The translations under genes were made by a program, and so were the position numbers. Below the pieces are notes generated by a model, which was not told the origin of the DNA, did no database searches, and saw only the letters and a list, made by a program, of their open reading frames with translations. Shown piece after piece: positions 10,867-19,020 of a stretch of 64,000 nucleotides of DNA. The stretch comes from Ignisphaera sp. GTDB lineage: Archaea > Thermoproteota > Thermoprotei_A > Sulfolobales > Ignisphaeraceae. Every line of letters starts with the position of its first letter. Position 1 is the first letter of the stretch. The DNA is taken from positions 1 to 64,000 of the forward strand of contig JAWBDT010000002.1 in NCBI GenBank assembly GCA_038821645.1. The letters are read 5' to 3'.

Positions 10867-11183
10867 GCGGTGCACAGGTAGGGCTAGGGGGCCTCCCACC
10901 CCCTGAACCCGGCGGGTTACGGGGGCCAGTAACTCAATACTGGTGTGTATAGATGTATATAACCTACTACACAATCACGATGACCCCCGCCCCATGGGGC
11001 TGGTGGTGGTGGGGCTACCTCTGGAGGGAGGTAGCTACCATCTTTACAGGGGGAAATCGGCCAGGCCCGGAAGGGAGCAACCTAACCTCTGACACCAGCG
11101 TTCATGGGTCTACGGGGTCGAGGTTCGGTTGTGTAGTAGGTTATATACATCTATACACACCAGTATTGAGGGCTGTGCACCGC
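10867..11183 (+). ncRNA. ffs: Signal recognition particle (7S) RNA
   Basis: Terminal helix GCGGTGCACAG/CTGTGCACCGC, Alu-like 5' domain, helix 6 with GGAG loop, and helix 8 GGCCAGGCCCGGAAGGGAGCAACC. Length 317 nt. Confidence 0.93.
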
Positions 11184-11203
11184 TTGTGTTGTGGTGTTGT
11201 TTG

Positions 11204-12277
11204 TTGCGTTTAGATGTTTTGGATGATAAACATGGTGTGATTAGGGTTAGAGTTGATTCTGAGGATGATCTATGGTTTCTTAGCTTATTTATTTCTTCTG
11301 GTGATCTTGTTAAAGCTTTAACTACAAGAGATGTTAGTATTGGGGATGAGAAGAGGAGACTTCCTATGGTTTTAACAGTAAAGGTGTTGAAGCTTGAGTT
11401 TCAGCCTTTTACAAATAAGTTGAGGATTCATGGTATTGTTGTTGAAGGTCCTGATCGTTTTGGTGTTTTGGGTTCTCATCATACTGTTTCTGTTGGTGTT
11501 GGTTCTGAAGTAGTGATATTTAAAAATGTTTGGGATAGAAGGACTGTGGAGGATATGTTCAAATTCTTGAAACCTATGAATCTTCTTCTGGTTTCTGTAG
11601 ATTTTGATGAGTATTCTATAGCTCTACTCCAGCTACAAGGGCTTAGGATTGTTGATGAGAAGAATGTGTCTCTTCCTGTAAGTGATGAAGGTTTTGAGAA
11701 AGCTGTAGAAGATCTTGTTGATGAACTAGCTAGAAGGATTGTTGAAACTGCTCGTAGATATAGAGTTGAAGCTGTTGTAATAGGTTCTCCTGGAGATCTG
11801 AAGAATCGTATTAAGAAAGCTATAGAGTCTCTCGATAGAGAACTCAGGATCTATACTGATAGCGTTGCAAACGGTGGTTATGCAGGTCTTCAAGAACTTC
11901 TCCATAGAGATACTGTTAGATCTATTGTAAAGGATACAGCTATAGCGAAAGCTAGTGAAATTCTAGAATACTTCGATATGCTTATGGCTAAAGATATAGG
12001 TAGAGTTGCCTACGGTATAGATCATGTAGAGATTGCTGCAGAAGTAGGTGCTATAGAAAAACTTCTAATAATAGATGAGCTACTTAGCGGATTTAGCGAG
12101 ATACGAGAAAAAATTGACAAGATTCTAAGAAATGTGGTTGAGAAAAATGGTAATATAGTGATAGTTCCAAGCAAATCACCTCCTGGTGAGAGAGTGAAGA
12201 TGTTGGGAGGAGTTATAGCAATACTTAGATATGCTCTAGATACAGAGTGGCTCAAGAATAGCAAAGACTATAACTGA
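11204..12277 (+). CDS. pelA: Pelota (Dom34) ribosome rescue factor
   Basis: 'DDLWFL....GD.V...TTR', 'EFQPFTNKLRIHG', 'GSHHT', SPG and 'GGVIAILRY'. Start taken at TTG 11204. Confidence 0.94.
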   Translation: MRLDVLDDKHGVIRVRVDSEDDLWFLSLFISSGDLVKALTTRDVSIGDEKRRLPMVLTVKVLKLEFQPFTNKLRIHGIVVEGPDRFGVLGSHHTVSVGVGSEVVIFKNVWDRRTVEDMFKFLKPMNLLLVSVDFDEYSIALLQLQGLRIVDEKNVSLPVSDEGFEKAVEDLVDELARRIVETARRYRVEAVVIGSPGDLKNRIKKAIESLDRELRIYTDSVANGGYAGLQELLHRDTVRSIVKDTAIAKASEILEYFDMLMAKDIGRVAYGIDHVEIAAEVGAIEKLLIIDELLSGFSEIREKIDKILRNVVEKNGNIVIVPSKSPPGERVKMLGGVIAILRYALDTEWLKNSKDYN

Positions 12278-12344: not shown

Positions 12345-13493
12345 CTACCTCCTGCTATACCTATTTATGCAATAATCCATGAGTTTCTTTAATAGAACAT
12401 ACTTATACTGTTTTACTGTAGCCCAATCATTATTAAGTAGTCCACCTGTTTCAGGATGTTCAGGATTTAGAGCAAGATAGAACCAGTAACACATATCATT
12501 ATCGATAAGATACTCAATAAACTTGGTATGCCATACAGCATCTCTAGGATCACTTTCACCACATTTACCACCAAATTCAGCTATAACTATTGGATATCCT
12601 AGCTGCTTCTTCACATATCCCCAGTTCTGATACCATATGAGGTGCAGATTATCAGGAAATACGCTAGGATCATCGATATAGGATTGAACAAATATGTCAG
12701 GTCCGTAGGTATTAACACCATAGACTAGTTTATCTCTAGGTAAGTTCACAGGATAATCTTTCACTGCTCTCAAATTCTCGCCCCAGAACATTGAATCAGG
12801 ATATAGTGGTACATTATCTGATTGTGGATTGGTGAACTGCGTTCCTTTAACTATTATTAGCCAATGAGGTGCCACCTCTAGTATAGCTTTACCTATTCTT
12901 TCAGCAGCTAGATTCCAATCAGTTTTCGGGTTACCCATACCCCAGGTAGCGCTATCACCTCTTGTATAGTATGCTTGTCTAGGTCCAATACCATGGGGAT
13001 TATTAAACAATTCTGCTCCTATAACATTCCAGTATTTTCCAAATCTTTTAGCAATGGCTATCCATGTATCTATTGTATTTTGTTCACTAAATGTTTGTGT
13101 ATACCATAGAGGCTCCATAATTATACAGCTTATGTTATGAAAACATAGAAGTATGTATATACCTAGTTCAGCAGCTTTAGCTATAATCTTCTCCATTATA
13201 GATATAGAGTCTAGTCCATAGAGATCTCGATTATAGGCATAGCTTATAACTCTAGGAGCAGGCCTAACACCAGGTCTCACAGAATTAGCACAGAAGGGTA
13301 GCCTTATTGCATTAAAACCTAAACTTTTAATTGTCTGGAGTATCTCAACCCAATTTCTGATGTGGAGCCCGTGAACTACATGACTACGATACTCAAAACC
13401 AACCCATGTTACACCTAGTATGTATAGAGGGTCTTCTTTTTCATCTCTAACAACATATATTTCTGAATCTCGAACTCTGTAGTAGATATCCAT
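12345..13493 (-). CDS. GH5 cellulase-family protein with a degenerate active site
   Basis: Close in layout to the Pyrococcus-type endoglucanase (GFNAIRLPF, EPLWYT, ATWGMGNPKTDWNLAAERIG, WGENL, YGPD, EFGG), but has NNP instead of NEP and no signal peptide. Confidence 0.88.
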   Translation of the reverse strand: MDIYYRVRDSEIYVVRDEKEDPLYILGVTWVGFEYRSHVVHGLHIRNWVEILQTIKSLGFNAIRLPFCANSVRPGVRPAPRVISYAYNRDLYGLDSISIMEKIIAKAAELGIYILLCFHNISCIIMEPLWYTQTFSEQNTIDTWIAIAKRFGKYWNVIGAELFNNPHGIGPRQAYYTRGDSATWGMGNPKTDWNLAAERIGKAILEVAPHWLIIVKGTQFTNPQSDNVPLYPDSMFWGENLRAVKDYPVNLPRDKLVYGVNTYGPDIFVQSYIDDPSVFPDNLHLIWYQNWGYVKKQLGYPIVIAEFGGKCGESDPRDAVWHTKFIEYLIDNDMCYWFYLALNPEHPETGGLLNNDWATVKQYKYVLLKKLMDYCINRYSRR

Positions 13494-13514
13494 ACTGTTT
13501 TGAACCTCTCTTCA

Positions 13515-14894
13515 TCATCTCTGAACAATATTTAGGCATTTGAGTATAGATTCTTCACTAATTCTTGTTACAAGATTATATGAAGCTATATCGATAGCGG
13601 CGATACGTCCCCTAACTACGTTGTGTTCTACAGTATTTTCTCTACATATGATTTCATGAACTATATCGTATCTAGATGTCTGGGTCTGAGTATATACACC
13701 ATTGATTAACTCGAATACTGTTATCAATCCATTCTTAATATATGTAGAAAGAGATCTCAGCATTTGATCAACATATAGCGGATCATGGTGTAGATATAGA
13801 GCTTCAGTTCCATCAATTATAAAGAAGTTGATATTTTGTTCAGCAAATCGATAAAGCATAGCCTCTAACTGTTGAGAAGAGAATATCGATGGGTTAAGGC
13901 TTTCGATAAACACAGATTTCTGTAGAATATAGTGTGGAGGAGTGCCTAGGGCTTGAGCTGATTTACTTATCACTTCTTTGGTAACTTCTTTGGATTCTCT
14001 AAAGCTTAGAATTCCATAGTTTAAGCCATAGTTCATTATGAGTTTTGTTAAGAGAAGCCATATAGAGAAGGGTATTATATTGCATCTAGATACTATACCT
14101 ACATATGTACCTGAGAGTATTGATCCCCAAACAGAATTGGTGCATTCATCTCTATAGCTTGTCATAGCCATAGAGTAAGGTACTTCAGCTATTGTTGGAG
14201 ATAATAAGCATCTAATACCTCTACCTTCTTCTATTACGAACGGTATCTCTGCCATAGGTATTGATTTTCCTCTAAACTTTCTAACCTCCATAAATCTGCT
14301 TATCATTCTCTTCTCTATTCTTGTCTTGAACACAAAAACAGCATCAGCAATAAACTCTAGCCCCTTTAGATCAACAGTCTCTGTAGCAAAAGGTAGATCG
14401 GCTATTAATATTAAGAGAGCTTTAGCTACTGATGATAAGTTATATAGTGTTGAATGTAGGTATGATCTAGCTTCATCTGTTGTAAGCACATTTAGTATAG
14501 GTGTTATCGAGTCTACAACAGCTATAGAGCATCCTTCAGTAAAGATCTTGGTGCTTAACGTAGAAGTTATAGCCTCTAGCAATTCTCTACCTGCTAGAGT
14601 AGGCATATGAATGAATTCCACAAGATTCTTTTTCTCACCATATTCAAAATCCATTGAGAATTTCTTCATATAGTTATAGAATTTTTCTCTTGTTTCTGCA
14701 AGACTTATGTATACACCCTTGACATTGAATCTTAAACAATTCTCAAAAAGTATACCAGCTGCAAAAGTTGATTTACCTGCACCAGGATGACCAAGAACTA
14801 GTAGAACAGAACCAGGTTCGATATCTCCAAGCAAATCAGCTATTATCTCATCCTTAAATACAAAACCTGCAACATCACTCTTCTCAAATCCCAT
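13515..14894 (-). CDS. KaiC/RAD55-family ATPase with an intact N-domain and a degenerate C-domain
   Basis: Walker A GHPGAGKS, ISLAE, Walker B VVDSIT, EFIADAV and RKFRG. The second domain keeps IIDG but has no Walker A. Confidence 0.88.
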   Translation of the reverse strand: MGFEKSDVAGFVFKDEIIADLLGDIEPGSVLLVLGHPGAGKSTFAAGILFENCLRFNVKGVYISLAETREKFYNYMKKFSMDFEYGEKKNLVEFIHMPTLAGRELLEAITSTLSTKIFTEGCSIAVVDSITPILNVLTTDEARSYLHSTLYNLSSVAKALLILIADLPFATETVDLKGLEFIADAVFVFKTRIEKRMISRFMEVRKFRGKSIPMAEIPFVIEEGRGIRCLLSPTIAEVPYSMAMTSYRDECTNSVWGSILSGTYVGIVSRCNIIPFSIWLLLTKLIMNYGLNYGILSFRESKEVTKEVISKSAQALGTPPHYILQKSVFIESLNPSIFSSQQLEAMLYRFAEQNINFFIIDGTEALYLHHDPLYVDQMLRSLSTYIKNGLITVFELINGVYTQTQTSRYDIVHEIICRENTVEHNVVRGRIAAIDIASYNLVTRISEESILKCLNIVQR

Positions 14895-15401
14895 CTCAAT
14901 TCTCCTCTCACTATACTGCTACTAACAATAGTTACCTAATCATATTTTTACATCTCCGATAATAAGTAATTGTGTTTTGTTAGAAATATTTAAGTTTTTA
15001 GATACACAAAATCCTCAATACATATTTATGGTTAGCTACATAACTCTAATCAAGATAATGAAAATAATACCTGTTGTATTTAATTAATGTATACTTATAA
15101 AGACTATATGCTATGGCAATATTGGTGATAAGTTCTATACCTATTAACTAGATTAAATAGAGCTGTATACATATTATTAGTGCTTATAACTGTTAGCAAA
15201 TTAGTAGATCGATTACTCGATACACTTAATCTCTAAGCTTATCTTGGATACAGATTAACTTGAAGCCTTATGTATACAAGCTTAATGATTTGTGGAAACA
15301 TACCTAAAAATAATATAGTTTAGTATATCATGTAATTAGGATTGAGAAGATGATGCTATCTAGAGCACAACTTTAACAACTCTCTAAACTTATTGAGTGA
15401 T

Positions 15402-15540
15402 TTAGCTATGATATAGGTCTATGTTGATTAGTATCAGTACCTCATTCCTGCTTCCTCTACATTTTGCCTGAATCTTCATCAGGCTTAGAGGTGTTGAGGT
15501 TTTGTCATCTCAGGCATTCCATATCTTGAGTAACTCAGGA
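15402..15540 (-). pseudogene. Decayed IS200/IS605 tnpB 3' end (omegaRNA-bearing region)
   Basis: Minus strand reads ACTCAAGATATGG...CCTCAACACCTCTAAGCCTGATGAAGATTCAGGCAAAATGTAGAGGAAGCAGGAATGAGG...ATCAACATAGACCTATATCATAGCTAA. This recalls crenarchaeal TnpB tails (YSRCG...NAPKPDE.P..MQG.RDE..INLY.S*), now interrupted by stops. Recognised from memory. Confidence 0.5.
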
Positions 15541-16549
15541 AGAACCTTAATGAATTCTCAACTTCATCATAATCACCATTATCACCATGTGCAAGGCATC
15601 TATAAGTGTTTTCATTAACACCAGTTAATATGGACAGATACGAGACTCGATATAGTTACTTTAGGCTCTATACAGGTTCATCATTTCATGGAGGTGCATC
15701 ACTTGATGGTGTGTCTAAGGAGTTTCTGGATACCTTTTGAGGTTTCGTAGCTTGATGGTGTAGTTAAGTGGTGCTTAACCTTACTTCAGTAAATTTAAGC
15801 AGAAGTTATTGACTCTCAATACACACCATAAGTTTATGGAGCCCCATTGATCCTAATGACAGTGATGGAGCTCAATGTAAACTATTGGTCTCAGAATCTA
15901 TATAGTTTGTGATACAAAATCTATACTACAGAAAATCGAACTCTATCTATAATCAGACTCTATTTAGATACTAATTGTTTAGAGCTAGAGCCACAGACTC
16001 TAAATTTAATCTGTTTGAATATCGAACTAGGTCTATACATAGAAGCTACTTATTATTAATTTCTAGCAGAAGCATCTTGTTAAATACTTCATATATTTGT
16101 ACACTAATCAATATACTAGTGAGTGTATCAATTAATACATAGAATGTATGAAAAAAGATTATAGTAAGTATCTATGGAGTATACCTAAGCTATCCGCTAG
16201 TTAATTTCTGTAGATCTCTATACCCATAAGTCTTGATCTAGTTAGGAACTCTAAGTACTTTATCTATCTTGTAGTTGTACTAGATCTACAGCTCTGGAGC
16301 TCATTTACTGTACTGCTATGTATACAGTTGAATGTATATAACTATTTTGAATTGATTAATCAGGATAGAAAGAGTATCTCATCTATTCTTCTACTGGTTC
16401 AGTATATTGTTGGTGTACTGCTTGATGTATTGGTAGCCTGTATAGTGATGAACCTTACAGACAACAGGTATCTCTTGATATATGATCTACAAAATTATCA
16501 AGAATTTCGTGAAAACATGTATAGTGGATCTAGATTAGAGTAAGTTGCG

Positions 16550-17604: not shown

Positions 17605-18681
17605 CTATAAAACTTTTGCAGCTTCTTCTAGTAATGGATCAAGGAATCTGTTTTCATTGTCTATTATAGAGTGATTTCTTAGTGTATGTAGAATCTCATA
17701 TATAACTCTATCACTTATAGACTTGCCCTCAGATTCCTCGAGTCTCTTCTTTAATTTTCCCCATTCTCTTACACCTAACGAAAGCAGCCTCAAAACCATC
17801 TTATACCTTTCTCTACTTACCCTATAGTTGATAAAATTCTCAAGTTCTTTCTTAGCCATTTCTACAGCATCTCTCCATATATCATCCATATTTTTACCTT
17901 GAAATACAGTTGAATAACCATAGTACGTAAGCCAACCAATTATACCATCTAGTTTATCTACTGCTTCATTGATTCTGTCTATACTCACATCATAGTTTAC
18001 TTCATTAAAGCCCTTCACTAAGAATTCTACAGCTTCTTCTCTTCTAAGTCTTCTAGTCTTAACCTCTAGATAAGCTCTACCATATAGAGGTGCTTCAGGA
18101 TCTTTTAAAAAACGGTATATAACACCCATCTCTGAACCACTAATAATGAACGAGATGTTCTTTAAATGATCGTAAGAATATGCTAAAGCGTTTTGAAGAG
18201 CCATCCCTATACCTCCAACAGCTCTCTGAAGTTCATCAAAAACCATCACCACCTTTACTCCATGTTCTTCAGCAACTCTATCTAGAGCTGTAAACAGTTG
18301 TGTAAGAAGGGGCCTATCTCGACCCCAGCTAAACTCTATACTTATCCCAGAAATAGAGACACCCTTTACAATACTCAAGATCTTTACCAACGATTCATAG
18401 AAACTTCTAAACCTAGACATCCTTGAAGCAAATTCCGATATACTTACAGACAGGGTTTCGTAGAGATCTCTCCAAGATCTAACAAATCCCCTTAGATCAA
18501 CAAATACGTAAGGGATACCGGACTCCTCAAGAACAGTCAGTATCAGAGATGTTTTACCTGTTCTCCTAAGACCAGTAACAACAAGTAGGGGGTGCCCCAG
18601 AAACTTCTTCAACATATTGAACTCTTCATCAAAATTGAAAAGATCTTCTTTTCTCCTTTTAGGTTTTGGATCAAACAACAT
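17605..18681 (-). CDS. Archaeal AAA+ ATPase (ATPase_2 family)
   Basis: MLFDPKPK..EDLF, GLRRTGKTS, VFDELQ, SGSE.G, PLYGR, LDGIIGWL and DP near the C-terminus. Confidence 0.92.
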   Translation of the reverse strand: MLFDPKPKRRKEDLFNFDEEFNMLKKFLGHPLLVVTGLRRTGKTSLILTVLEESGIPYVFVDLRGFVRSWRDLYETLSVSISEFASRMSRFRSFYESLVKILSIVKGVSISGISIEFSWGRDRPLLTQLFTALDRVAEEHGVKVVMVFDELQRAVGGIGMALQNALAYSYDHLKNISFIISGSEMGVIYRFLKDPEAPLYGRAYLEVKTRRLRREEAVEFLVKGFNEVNYDVSIDRINEAVDKLDGIIGWLTYYGYSTVFQGKNMDDIWRDAVEMAKKELENFINYRVSRERYKMVLRLLSLGVREWGKLKKRLEESEGKSISDRVIYEILHTLRNHSIIDNENRFLDPLLEEAAKVL

Positions 18682-19020
18682 ACTTTCGCACCAGAATAAG
18701 CTTCCGTACTGAAAGCTTAAAATCTTTAATACCAAATAACTATTTTATCAATCAAAATTCTCGCTATTCTGGATGAGAGGAGGTCAGACTATTGCATGAG
18801 CCTCAGAAATACTGTAAAACGATAATCTTATTTATGAATAATCATTATCTAATTAGAGAAAACTGAATGAATCAGCAAATACATGGTCACAATATCTTAT
18901 TGATTATGGAGTGCTCTAGGCTATATCTAAGATATAGAAACACAATCATTGTGATATTAAGATCAACTGTCTATACAGGATATACATATCTAATAGTTTA
19001 ATTCATAGTTTAATTCAAAG

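Follow-up and report, generated by a model that had tools for sequence, protein, structure and literature searches.

The window analysed here is a stretch of 64,000 nucleotides (nt) from a genome of the hot-spring archaeon Ignisphaera (assembly GCA_038821645.1, contig JAWBDT010000002.1, positions 1 to 64,000). Its minus strand carries two adjacent open reading frames (ORFs): first the gene of a KaiC-like ATPase of 459 amino acids (aa; 13515..14894), and second the gene of a protein of 382 aa (12345..13493) that derives from subfamily GH5_1 of glycoside hydrolase family 5 (GH5), is predicted to be cytoplasmic and lacks the acid/base Glu of the family. The possible recruitment of this former glucanase as a regulatory subunit of the ATPase is the subject of the present report. 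The TGA stop codon of the KaiC gene (13515-13517) and the ATG of the GH5 gene (13491-13493) are separated by exactly 21 nt (13494..13514), within which a purine-rich GAGAGGT (13504-13510) lies upstream of the GH5 start. A second purine-rich stretch, GAGAGGAGA (14901..14909, minus strand), is found 7-15 nt upstream of the KaiC ATG and may likewise act as a Shine-Dalgarno sequence. The common orientation of the genes, their 21-bp gap and a purine-rich stretch before each of them had been described in a first-pass annotation of this DNA, and all are confirmed. The GH5 ORF cannot be extended upstream, an in-frame stop being present six codons before its ATG. In orthologous pairs of the same type the spacers measure 5, 5, 6 and 21 nt, and in the related pairs that retain the catalytic NEP motif (see below) 21 nt; such short spacers are consistent with co-transcription of the two genes.

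The two proteins

The KaiC family (PF06745, Pfam) matches the ATPase over residues 23-228 only, with 117.9 bits against a cut-off of 26.6. The N-terminal domain (residues 1-230, 14205..14894), within which Pfam and PDB matches cover residues 23-229, is predicted to be an active RecA/KaiC ATPase. Its Walker A motif reads GHPGAGKST (residues 35-43, codons at 14766..14792) and is accompanied by Glu67, by the Walker B Asp128 and by an RKFRG motif, so that Walker A, Walker B, catalytic Glu and Arg finger of KaiC-like ATPases are all present. Among 17 aligned family members, G35, H36, P37, G38, G40 and K41 of the Walker A motif are invariant, as are E67, D128, R205, K206 and R208. In the C-terminal domain (residues 231-459, 13518..14204), no Walker A was found in any of these 17 members, down to 25 % identity. 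An AlphaFold2 model of the protein (pLDDT 83.4, pTM 0.69) was aligned by Foldseek with the two-domain KaiC 8zn5_C over 447 columns (E 1e-27, TM 0.74), and the second domain is thereby predicted to adopt a KaiC-like fold devoid of nucleotide-binding motifs, i.e., the architecture of a KaiC followed by an inactivated KaiC (iKaiC) domain. The first-pass annotation was thus right to describe one intact and one degenerate ATPase domain, but the arrangement is not special to this locus. It is common to the whole paralog family, of which the same genome encodes four further full-length two-domain members with 29-32 % identity (contigs C4, C19 and C3; L025-L028). One of these paralogs, L026, is followed by an ORF of 112 aa with a weak, sub-threshold match (E 4.6e-4) to NitrOD5, a domain of signalling output in archaea. 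The protein does not qualify as a circadian KaiC, since it scores 62.3 instead of 408 bits with NF006799 and 24.1 instead of 546 with TIGR02655, and its C-terminal domain lacks the P-loop; moreover, KaiB (PF07689) was not found in this genome, which is 97.8 % complete.

The second protein matches PF00150 with 123.2 bits (Pfam cut-off 23.5) and falls inside archaeal GH5_1 in the tree; the NCBIfam search assigned no family to it. It aligns over residues 3-377 (PDB chain alignment with 3axx and others, E 8.5e-148), with 58-60 % identity and no large gaps, to EGPh (PH1171; PDB 2zum, 3axx, 3qhm/n/o), a GH5_1 endo-beta-1,4-glucanase of Pyrococcus horikoshii whose residue numbers were counted here along the chain alignment. 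We take E201 of EGPh to be the acid/base and E342 the nucleophile, in line with established knowledge of GH5; among the deposited chains there are variants with a change at E201 (3qhn) or at Y299 (3qho). Three motifs are altered in the window protein. NEPH has become NNPH, which places N165 opposite E201 (codon AAT, 12999..13001, two changes away from GAA or GAG), PHVYGP has become VNTYGP, with N261 for H297 (AAT, 12711..12713), and FYWSW has become FYLAL, with L340 for W377 (CTT, 12474..12476). Three DNA sequencing runs span the whole stretch, and none of the differences listed falls at 12999-13001, the list leaving out 20 further ones. In comparison, R102, H155, N200, Y299 and the nucleophile E342 of EGPh are retained as R64, H119, N164, Y263 and E306, the latter in an IAEFGG motif (codon GAA, 12576..12578). 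The canonical active site of GH5 comprises eight residues, of which three are therefore replaced. The protein combines PF00150 homology and the strand-7 nucleophile Glu with loss of the NEP acid/base Glu of strand 4, and the set of other conserved active-site residues is incomplete owing to the replacements of H297 and W377. In this respect the earlier reading of a full-length GH5 with changed NNP, NTYGP and FYLAL motifs and retained Arg, His, Asn, Tyr and nucleophile stands unaltered. The absence of a signal peptide, also proposed at that stage, is borne out by the in-frame stop upstream and by the N-terminus, which coincides with the first strand of the mature EGPh domain and contains no hydrophobic stretch, unlike that of secreted paralogs. 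The window protein thus departs from the extracellular location described for GH5_1.

The count of three active-site changes is nevertheless an underestimate. Of the columns with a conservation of 80 % or more in active homologs, 12 differ in the clade of GH5s that have lost the acid/base Glu (the degenerate clade), the change being near-fixed at most of them: F31, D117C, D161E, E165N/S, E216K, S259G, P260V, H261N/D, G305A/T, W340L/N, S346 and D348. At the acid/base position every clade member has N or S, as opposed to E in 111/111 aligned active homologs. Position 261 is His in 109 of 110 active homologs, but Asn (10) or Asp (1) in the 11 clade members, and position 340 is Trp in 107 of 109 as against Leu (10) or Asn (1) of 11. 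At position 216 (EGPh E252; codon AAA, 12846..12848), the Glu found in 100 of 111 active homologs is Lys in 11/11 clade members. In the region of the cleft, two acidic side chains are thus lost (D117C, E165N/S) and a third is turned into Lys (E216K). On the other hand, 61 of the 77 family-conserved columns are kept in the clade, and the nucleophile E306 together with R64, H119, N164 and Y263 is invariant in clade and family alike.

Linkage, conservation and history of the gene pair

The acid/base Glu is missing from 7 of 119 near-length homologs, which are the seven closest to the window protein (70-97 % identity), while the other 112 keep it. A KaiC ortholog (56-97 % identity) lies directly upstream in 8/8 intact degenerate GH5 loci, distributed over seven genomes, with spacers of 5-21 nt. 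Hence, the E-to-N orthologs that the first-pass annotation had suggested looking for do exist, with N or S at this position, and all of them adjoin the same KaiC ortholog. Among 17 Ignisphaera genomes, seven contain both genes, nine (72-99 % complete) contain neither, one (G001) contains both in broken form and none contains one gene alone; co-occurrence and co-loss are strict. Outside this lineage the association disappears. A KaiC hit within 4 kb of a GH5 gene was obtained at 4/4 loci of the lineage versus 0/76 others in GTDB representative genomes (80 loci), and at 7/7 versus 0/73 in metagenomes (80 loci), in tblastn searches with the window KaiC as query, which very distant KaiC genes could escape. 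In five genomes the pair is inserted between pyrH and the genes for pelota, the signal recognition particle (SRP) RNA and SHMT. In I. aggregans, the flanks are different (an EamA transporter and fumarase) but the pair is intact. The latter species (G015) also possesses a second cytoplasmic GH5_1 of 370 aa (C1:188390-189478; L014/L023), without a signal peptide and with intact catalytic residues, which groups with Infirmifilum enzymes and has no adjoining KaiC gene. Cytoplasmic location alone does not, therefore, imply linkage to KaiC.

A closely related type of pair occurs in three metagenome loci (L138, L144, L148) and on one contig of the metagenome-assembled genome G013. There, a GH5 that is 61 % identical to the window protein, and likewise devoid of a signal peptide, follows at 21 nt a KaiC gene whose product is 48-50 % identical to the window KaiC. 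This NEP-type GH5 keeps NEP, PHVYGP, FYW and E216. In L148 (3001-4120) its frame shifts near residue 172, by a frameshift or a sequencing error. All KaiC-linked GH5s form one clade (support 100/98), composed of the NEP type (100/100) and the degenerate type (100/100, on a stem of 0.45), and this clade is sister to secreted GH5s of Ignisphaera and Thermofilaceae (99/98), in a tree that was midpoint-rooted for drawing only. The likely order of events is that a secreted glucanase gave rise to a cytoplasmic KaiC-linked glucanase, which then lost its catalytic residues in one branch. The partnership with KaiC is probably older than the catalytic loss and, given a KaiC-linked sister with intact residues, does not depend on it. 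As to whether orthologs retain NEP, the question posed by the earlier annotation receives a divided answer: the degenerate clade has N or S throughout, whereas its cytoplasmic, KaiC-linked sister keeps NEP, PHxYGP and FYW. The pelota gene is found downstream at NEP-type loci, as in the window, but not at the degenerate loci of the G013 lineage, and the two types of pair may be either orthologs or coexisting duplicates.

The C-terminal half of the KaiC protein has evolved faster than the N-terminal half. Between the two GH5 types, the C-terminal domains are 31-35 % identical as compared with 60-82 % for the N-terminal domains. In one comparison of a degenerate-type with a NEP-type KaiC, the N-terminal domains share 81.9 % of their residues (100 % over residues 136-195) and the C-terminal domains 34.7 %. 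At the DNA level, L056:1-577 and L144:1726-2302, which encode the N-terminal domain, are 99.65 % identical over 577 nt; the similarity stops at the domain boundary, and the GH5 genes of these two loci are 65-78 % identical. This pattern is likely to stem either from an exchange, by recombination or gene conversion, among lineages or paralogs that co-occur, or from an assembly chimera. Besides the genome locus L056, however, a distinct cluster of 16 proteins (P0122) shows the same split in full-length form. Loci would thus seem able to exchange the ATPase domain, and the divergent C-terminal domain would travel with its GH5 type.

Whether the degenerate GH5 is in decay can be judged from its conservation. 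Its ORFs are intact in seven genomes between which synonymous divergence is mostly saturated. For most cross-species pairs the ratio of nonsynonymous to synonymous divergence (dN/dS) was not computable, since the proportion of differing synonymous sites (pS) of 0.74-0.89 amounts to saturation. Where it could be obtained, dN/dS was 0.317 for G000-G004 (12 amino-acid changes), 0.138 for G006-G007 and 0.14-0.15 in comparisons with G015; the remaining cross-species pairs show a dN of 0.17-0.24 at saturated synonymous sites. The amino-acid identity of the GH5 between species is 68-77 %, as against 60-65 % for pelota, 64-76 % for pyrH, 64-78 % for SHMT and 55-61 % for the KaiC partner. The GH5 is therefore at least as conserved as the flanking housekeeping genes and more so than KaiC, and is under purifying rather than relaxed selection. 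Real decay looks different and can be seen in G001, which contains fragments of both genes, of the same type as in the window, with stops, frameshifts and a deletion. In the two loci concerned (L009 and L015, contigs 49 and 89), several in-frame stops are mostly situated at Trp positions of the two window proteins, the NNP region is deleted, and the KaiC fragment lies on the strand opposite to that of the GH5 fragment, suggesting a rearrangement. The earlier opinion that the gene is not decaying is upheld by the fixed substitutions, by dN/dS and by the contrast with this broken pair, and the selection analysis proposed along with it shows no relaxation where dS is unsaturated.

A hint of expression, albeit a weak one, comes from one metatranscriptome library (X20), whose contigs match the pair with 90-99 % identity in 19 of 30 bins and leave the other 11 uncovered; they carry no information on strand, ends or co-transcription, and DNA carry-over is possible. 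Upstream of the KaiC gene is a gap of 1.65 kb (14895-16549), in which searches with Rfam (E <=0.1) and for tRNAs gave no match and the sole ORF of at least 60 aa encodes 71 aa on the opposite strand (16328-16543). A gap of 1.0-1.7 kb occupies the same position in G004, G006, G007 and G010. Conservation across species within it is limited to about 50 nt (~15752-15802; 81-88 % identity) that contain an inverted repeat, GCTTAA...TTAAGC, and may represent a small RNA or a regulatory site. On the other side of the pair, the archaeal SRP RNA (RF01857, 10871-11179, plus strand; 177.8 bits, E 1.3e-42) overlaps the 5' end of the pelota/eRF1-like ORF (11129-12277). The Pfam match of this ORF begins at residue 32 only, which together with the overlap indicates that its true start is probably further downstream. 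Further away, a gene at 17605-18735 (minus strand) encodes a protein of 376 aa with an archaeal ATPase_2 domain (PF01637) and a C-terminal MCM-type winged helix (PF21100); its place in G006, G007 and G010 is taken by a different ORF of ~390 aa on the other strand.

A former glucanase as a candidate subunit of KaiC

We favour, with a probability of about one half, an interpretation according to which the Ignisphaera protein is a former cellulase that no longer hydrolyses glycans and has become a subunit of a KaiC ATPase, with a regulatory or ligand-binding role. The pair would constitute a self-contained two-gene operon of the genus Ignisphaera. Its first gene would provide a KaiC-family ATPase whose N-terminal RecA-like domain works and whose C-terminal KaiC fold has lost its P-loop, and its second gene a descendant of a secreted GH5_1 endo-beta-glucanase that has shed the signal peptide and the C-terminal extension. 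Once this ex-glucanase had become linked to a KaiC paralog, the sub-clade represented in the window would have lost the acid/base Glu and two residues of the -1 subsite, His and Trp, and in the same sub-clade D117C, E165N/S and E216K would have altered the surroundings of the old active site. The ex-glucanase probably docks on the variable C-terminal domain of KaiC, a site proposed from the domain-wise divergence. Binding of an imported beta-linked oligosaccharide, or of a related metabolite, in the remodelled cleft might then change the state of the KaiC ATPase, and the NEP-type sister would correspond to an earlier stage, an enzyme that also signals. A signal of this nature is plausible, as extracellular breakdown of beta-glycans is a probable trait of the organism: its genome contains large open frames of 840, 1336 and 841 aa with distant or weak PF00150 matches, in addition to a GH1 frame of 516 aa (C13:53498-54163, C27:8307-8513, C24:11523-12017 and C23:1309-2790).

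Taken a step further, the pair might represent the first input module to be defined for the KaiC-like signalling network of archaea, in which an ex-cellulase has been brought into the cytoplasm as a ligand sensor, with a "trigger enzyme" as its sister, a pseudoenzyme as the sensor proper and the P-loop-less C-terminal domain as docking module. This extended proposal is tentative, and we consider it less likely than not.

Several observations weigh against a ligand-sensing subunit. The genomes of the genus are close kin, and the counts of co-occurrence are therefore not independent events. Pairing with KaiC does not require an inactive GH5, as the NEP-type sister demonstrates. In GH5 enzymes the -1 sugar is contacted by the His and Trp at positions 261 and 340, both lost here, so that binding of oligosaccharides in the ancestral mode is doubtful; combined with the shift of charge around the cleft, these losses argue against a simple sensor of cello-oligosaccharides. 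The invariant nucleophile and its supporting residues, for their part, are not obviously needed by a pure binder and would be equally compatible with residual or altered catalysis. No DNA-binding or other recognisable output domain was detected by Pfam in either protein. Fusions of KaiC to GH5 did not come to light, PF06745 being present in 0/40 long GH5 homologs (670-2000 aa), all of them multidomain cellulases; this absence is weak evidence. The prediction of the complex, one of the checks put forward in the first-pass annotation, speaks in favour of the subunit, but weakly. The KaiC-GH5 model reached a median ipSAE of 0.52 (runs of 0.51, 0.62 and 0.52), versus 0.00 for the best of three controls, with at least 70 % of the contacts agreeing between runs and a partner pLDDT of at least 91. 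In the calibration, 157 solved complexes and 215 mismatched pairs were scored, of which 116 and 2, respectively, attain the mark applied, but the band up to 0.60 holds only 18 of the 157 and both of the passing mismatches. These counts apply roughly, as alignments of our own were supplied. A prediction in this band would be more often wrong than right unless the interaction was a likely guess beforehand.

Among the other explanations, the one that fares best is that the GH5 is an enzyme of altered chemistry, performing retaining transfer or hydrolysis without a protein acid/base while KaiC regulates or assists it; we regard this as possible but unlikely. Such a reaction could rely on a good leaving group (a sugar phosphate or an activated cytoplasmic glycoside), on a base furnished by the substrate or an external anion, or on transglycosylation. 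The idea would account well for the invariance of E306, R64, H119, N164 and Y263 throughout clade and family. D117C, E165N/S and E216K would also suit an anionic substrate, and the NEP-type sister, judged by its residues, looks able to act as a glycosidase in the cytoplasm beside the same KaiC partner. Nature offers an example in myrosinase, a retaining glycosidase that works without the acid/base Glu. Aspeborg et al. (PMC3526467) remark that members of GH5 whose machinery is incomplete may "possess alternate mechanisms". However, the loss of His261 and Trp340 exceeds what a change of leaving group would entail, as it removes contacts of the -1 subsite, and no candidate for a substitute acid/base could be located from the sequence alone. 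Nor does any neighbour point to a substrate pathway, the flanks being housekeeping genes that differ in I. aggregans.

It is less probable still that the GH5 barrel is a sugar-independent adaptor. Its cleft would in this case have been rebuilt to accommodate part of KaiC itself or a ligand other than a carbohydrate, and its role in the KaiC hexamer would be structural or regulatory only. The replacement of three of the eight canonical active-site residues and the changed charge of the cleft region would be in keeping with this, as would the weak complex prediction and the covariation of the KaiC C-terminal domain with the type of GH5. Moreover, some 35 positions carry residues that the clade has fixed and that are rare in active homologs, many of them common to the NEP-type sister, as expected of an interface. 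Yet the 61 of 77 conserved columns that are kept, including most residues of the catalytic centre, are more than a scaffold needs, and the NEP-type sister combines a fully canonical cleft with the same kind of KaiC.

Two further explanations have little to recommend them. That a KaiC-like NTPase here forms the core of a mobile element or of a module for defence against viruses is most improbable and was rejected: the only pointer is a weak PADLOC match of KaiC to mad8 (E 2.6e-5) restricted to the P-loop region (residues 24-67), while the GH5 has no PADLOC match, the context of pyrH, pelota, SRP RNA and SHMT is stable in five genomes, the GC content is unremarkable and no integrase or repeats were noted at the locus. 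That the gene is a decaying cellulase relic sitting beside KaiC by chance can practically be set aside, because, even if the catalytic acid/base is missing and the window gene is the sole close GH5_1 copy in its genome, its ORFs are unbroken in seven genomes despite saturated synonymous sites (dN/dS 0.14-0.32 where measurable), the replacements have become fixed instead of being scattered, the order of KaiC and GH5 survives rearrangement and true decay, as in G001, brings stops, frameshifts and deletions to both genes.

The pair is of interest beyond this genus. Archaeal KaiC-like ATPases are abundant, with five full-length copies in this genome, and their inputs are mostly unknown although they have been proposed as hubs. 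The pair offers a concrete test case, as both proteins are thermostable, the GH5 is 60 % identical to a crystallised protein and a homologous pair is present in I. aggregans DSM 17230, which is in culture. In addition, the two clades provide a natural "before and after" series in which the catalytic residues are intact on one side and lost on the other. The source annotations of these homologs read "glycoside hydrolase family 5 protein" or "endoglucanase", and caution is advisable when such genes are counted as cellulases in surveys of hot-spring metagenomes.

Relation to known systems

With respect to EGPh, the window GH5 differs by the lack of a signal peptide and of a C-terminal extension and by the substitutions E201N, H297N, W377L and E252K. 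The cysteines that form disulfides in EGPh, given as C106, C159, C372 and C412 in an excerpt of PMC3691470, are all four kept, as C68, C123, C335 and C375. GH5_1 is described in part of PMC3526467 as a subfamily of extracellular enzymes, from which the window protein would depart by its predicted cytoplasmic location and its operon linkage to KaiC.

As for the ATPase, Makarova, Galperin and Koonin (2017) reportedly proposed archaeal KaiC-like ATPases as signal-transduction hubs, including forms with "inactivated KaiC" domains. The term iKaiC for such domains appears in a portion of PMC5847659. The window KaiC shares with these hubs the combination of a KaiC N-terminal domain and a P-loop-less KaiC-like domain, the presence of several paralogs and a lineage-specific partner gene. 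Cyanobacterial circadian KaiC likewise consists of two tandem RecA-like domains and matches the fold over its full length (TM 0.74). However, the identity to the KaiC matches listed is 14-21 % (20 % to 8zn5_C), and the second Walker A is absent. A link between KaiC and a glycoside hydrolase was not found in the literature searched, a point on which the 2017 survey or its supplements may have a bearing.

Pseudo-glycosidases that have lost catalytic residues and acquired new roles are known from several families. Those named in passages of PMC3526467 comprise GH5_30, a Xanthomonas GH5_1-expansin, GH18 xylanase inhibitors and chitinase-like lectins, the Xanthomonas GH5_1 subgroup being fused to expansin and CBM63. 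Neither these nor myrosinase come from archaea, reside in the cytoplasm or have an ATPase as partner. The closest documented precedent, by analogy, would be the GH5 module of Rsi24C/RsgI in C. thermocellum, which according to parts of PMC3526467 and PMC6852018 has lost its acid/base residue, binds cellulose and signals via an anti-sigma factor. The window GH5 is similarly without the acid/base Glu. The RsgI module, however, is a "distant" GH5 that is extracellular, bacterial and fused to a membrane anti-sigma factor with sigma-I as readout, whereas the window GH5 is a stand-alone GH5_1 of 382 aa with no other Pfam domain, archaeal, predicted to be cytoplasmic and paired with KaiC, and thus neither fused to a signalling protein nor displayed on the cell surface. 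The module would add an archaeal, cytoplasmic case to the short list of glycosidases that have turned non-hydrolytic. Both of its elements belong to known kinds, a pseudo-glycosidase sensor on the one hand and a KaiC-like module with a lineage-specific partner on the other, and their pairing is confined to one genus.

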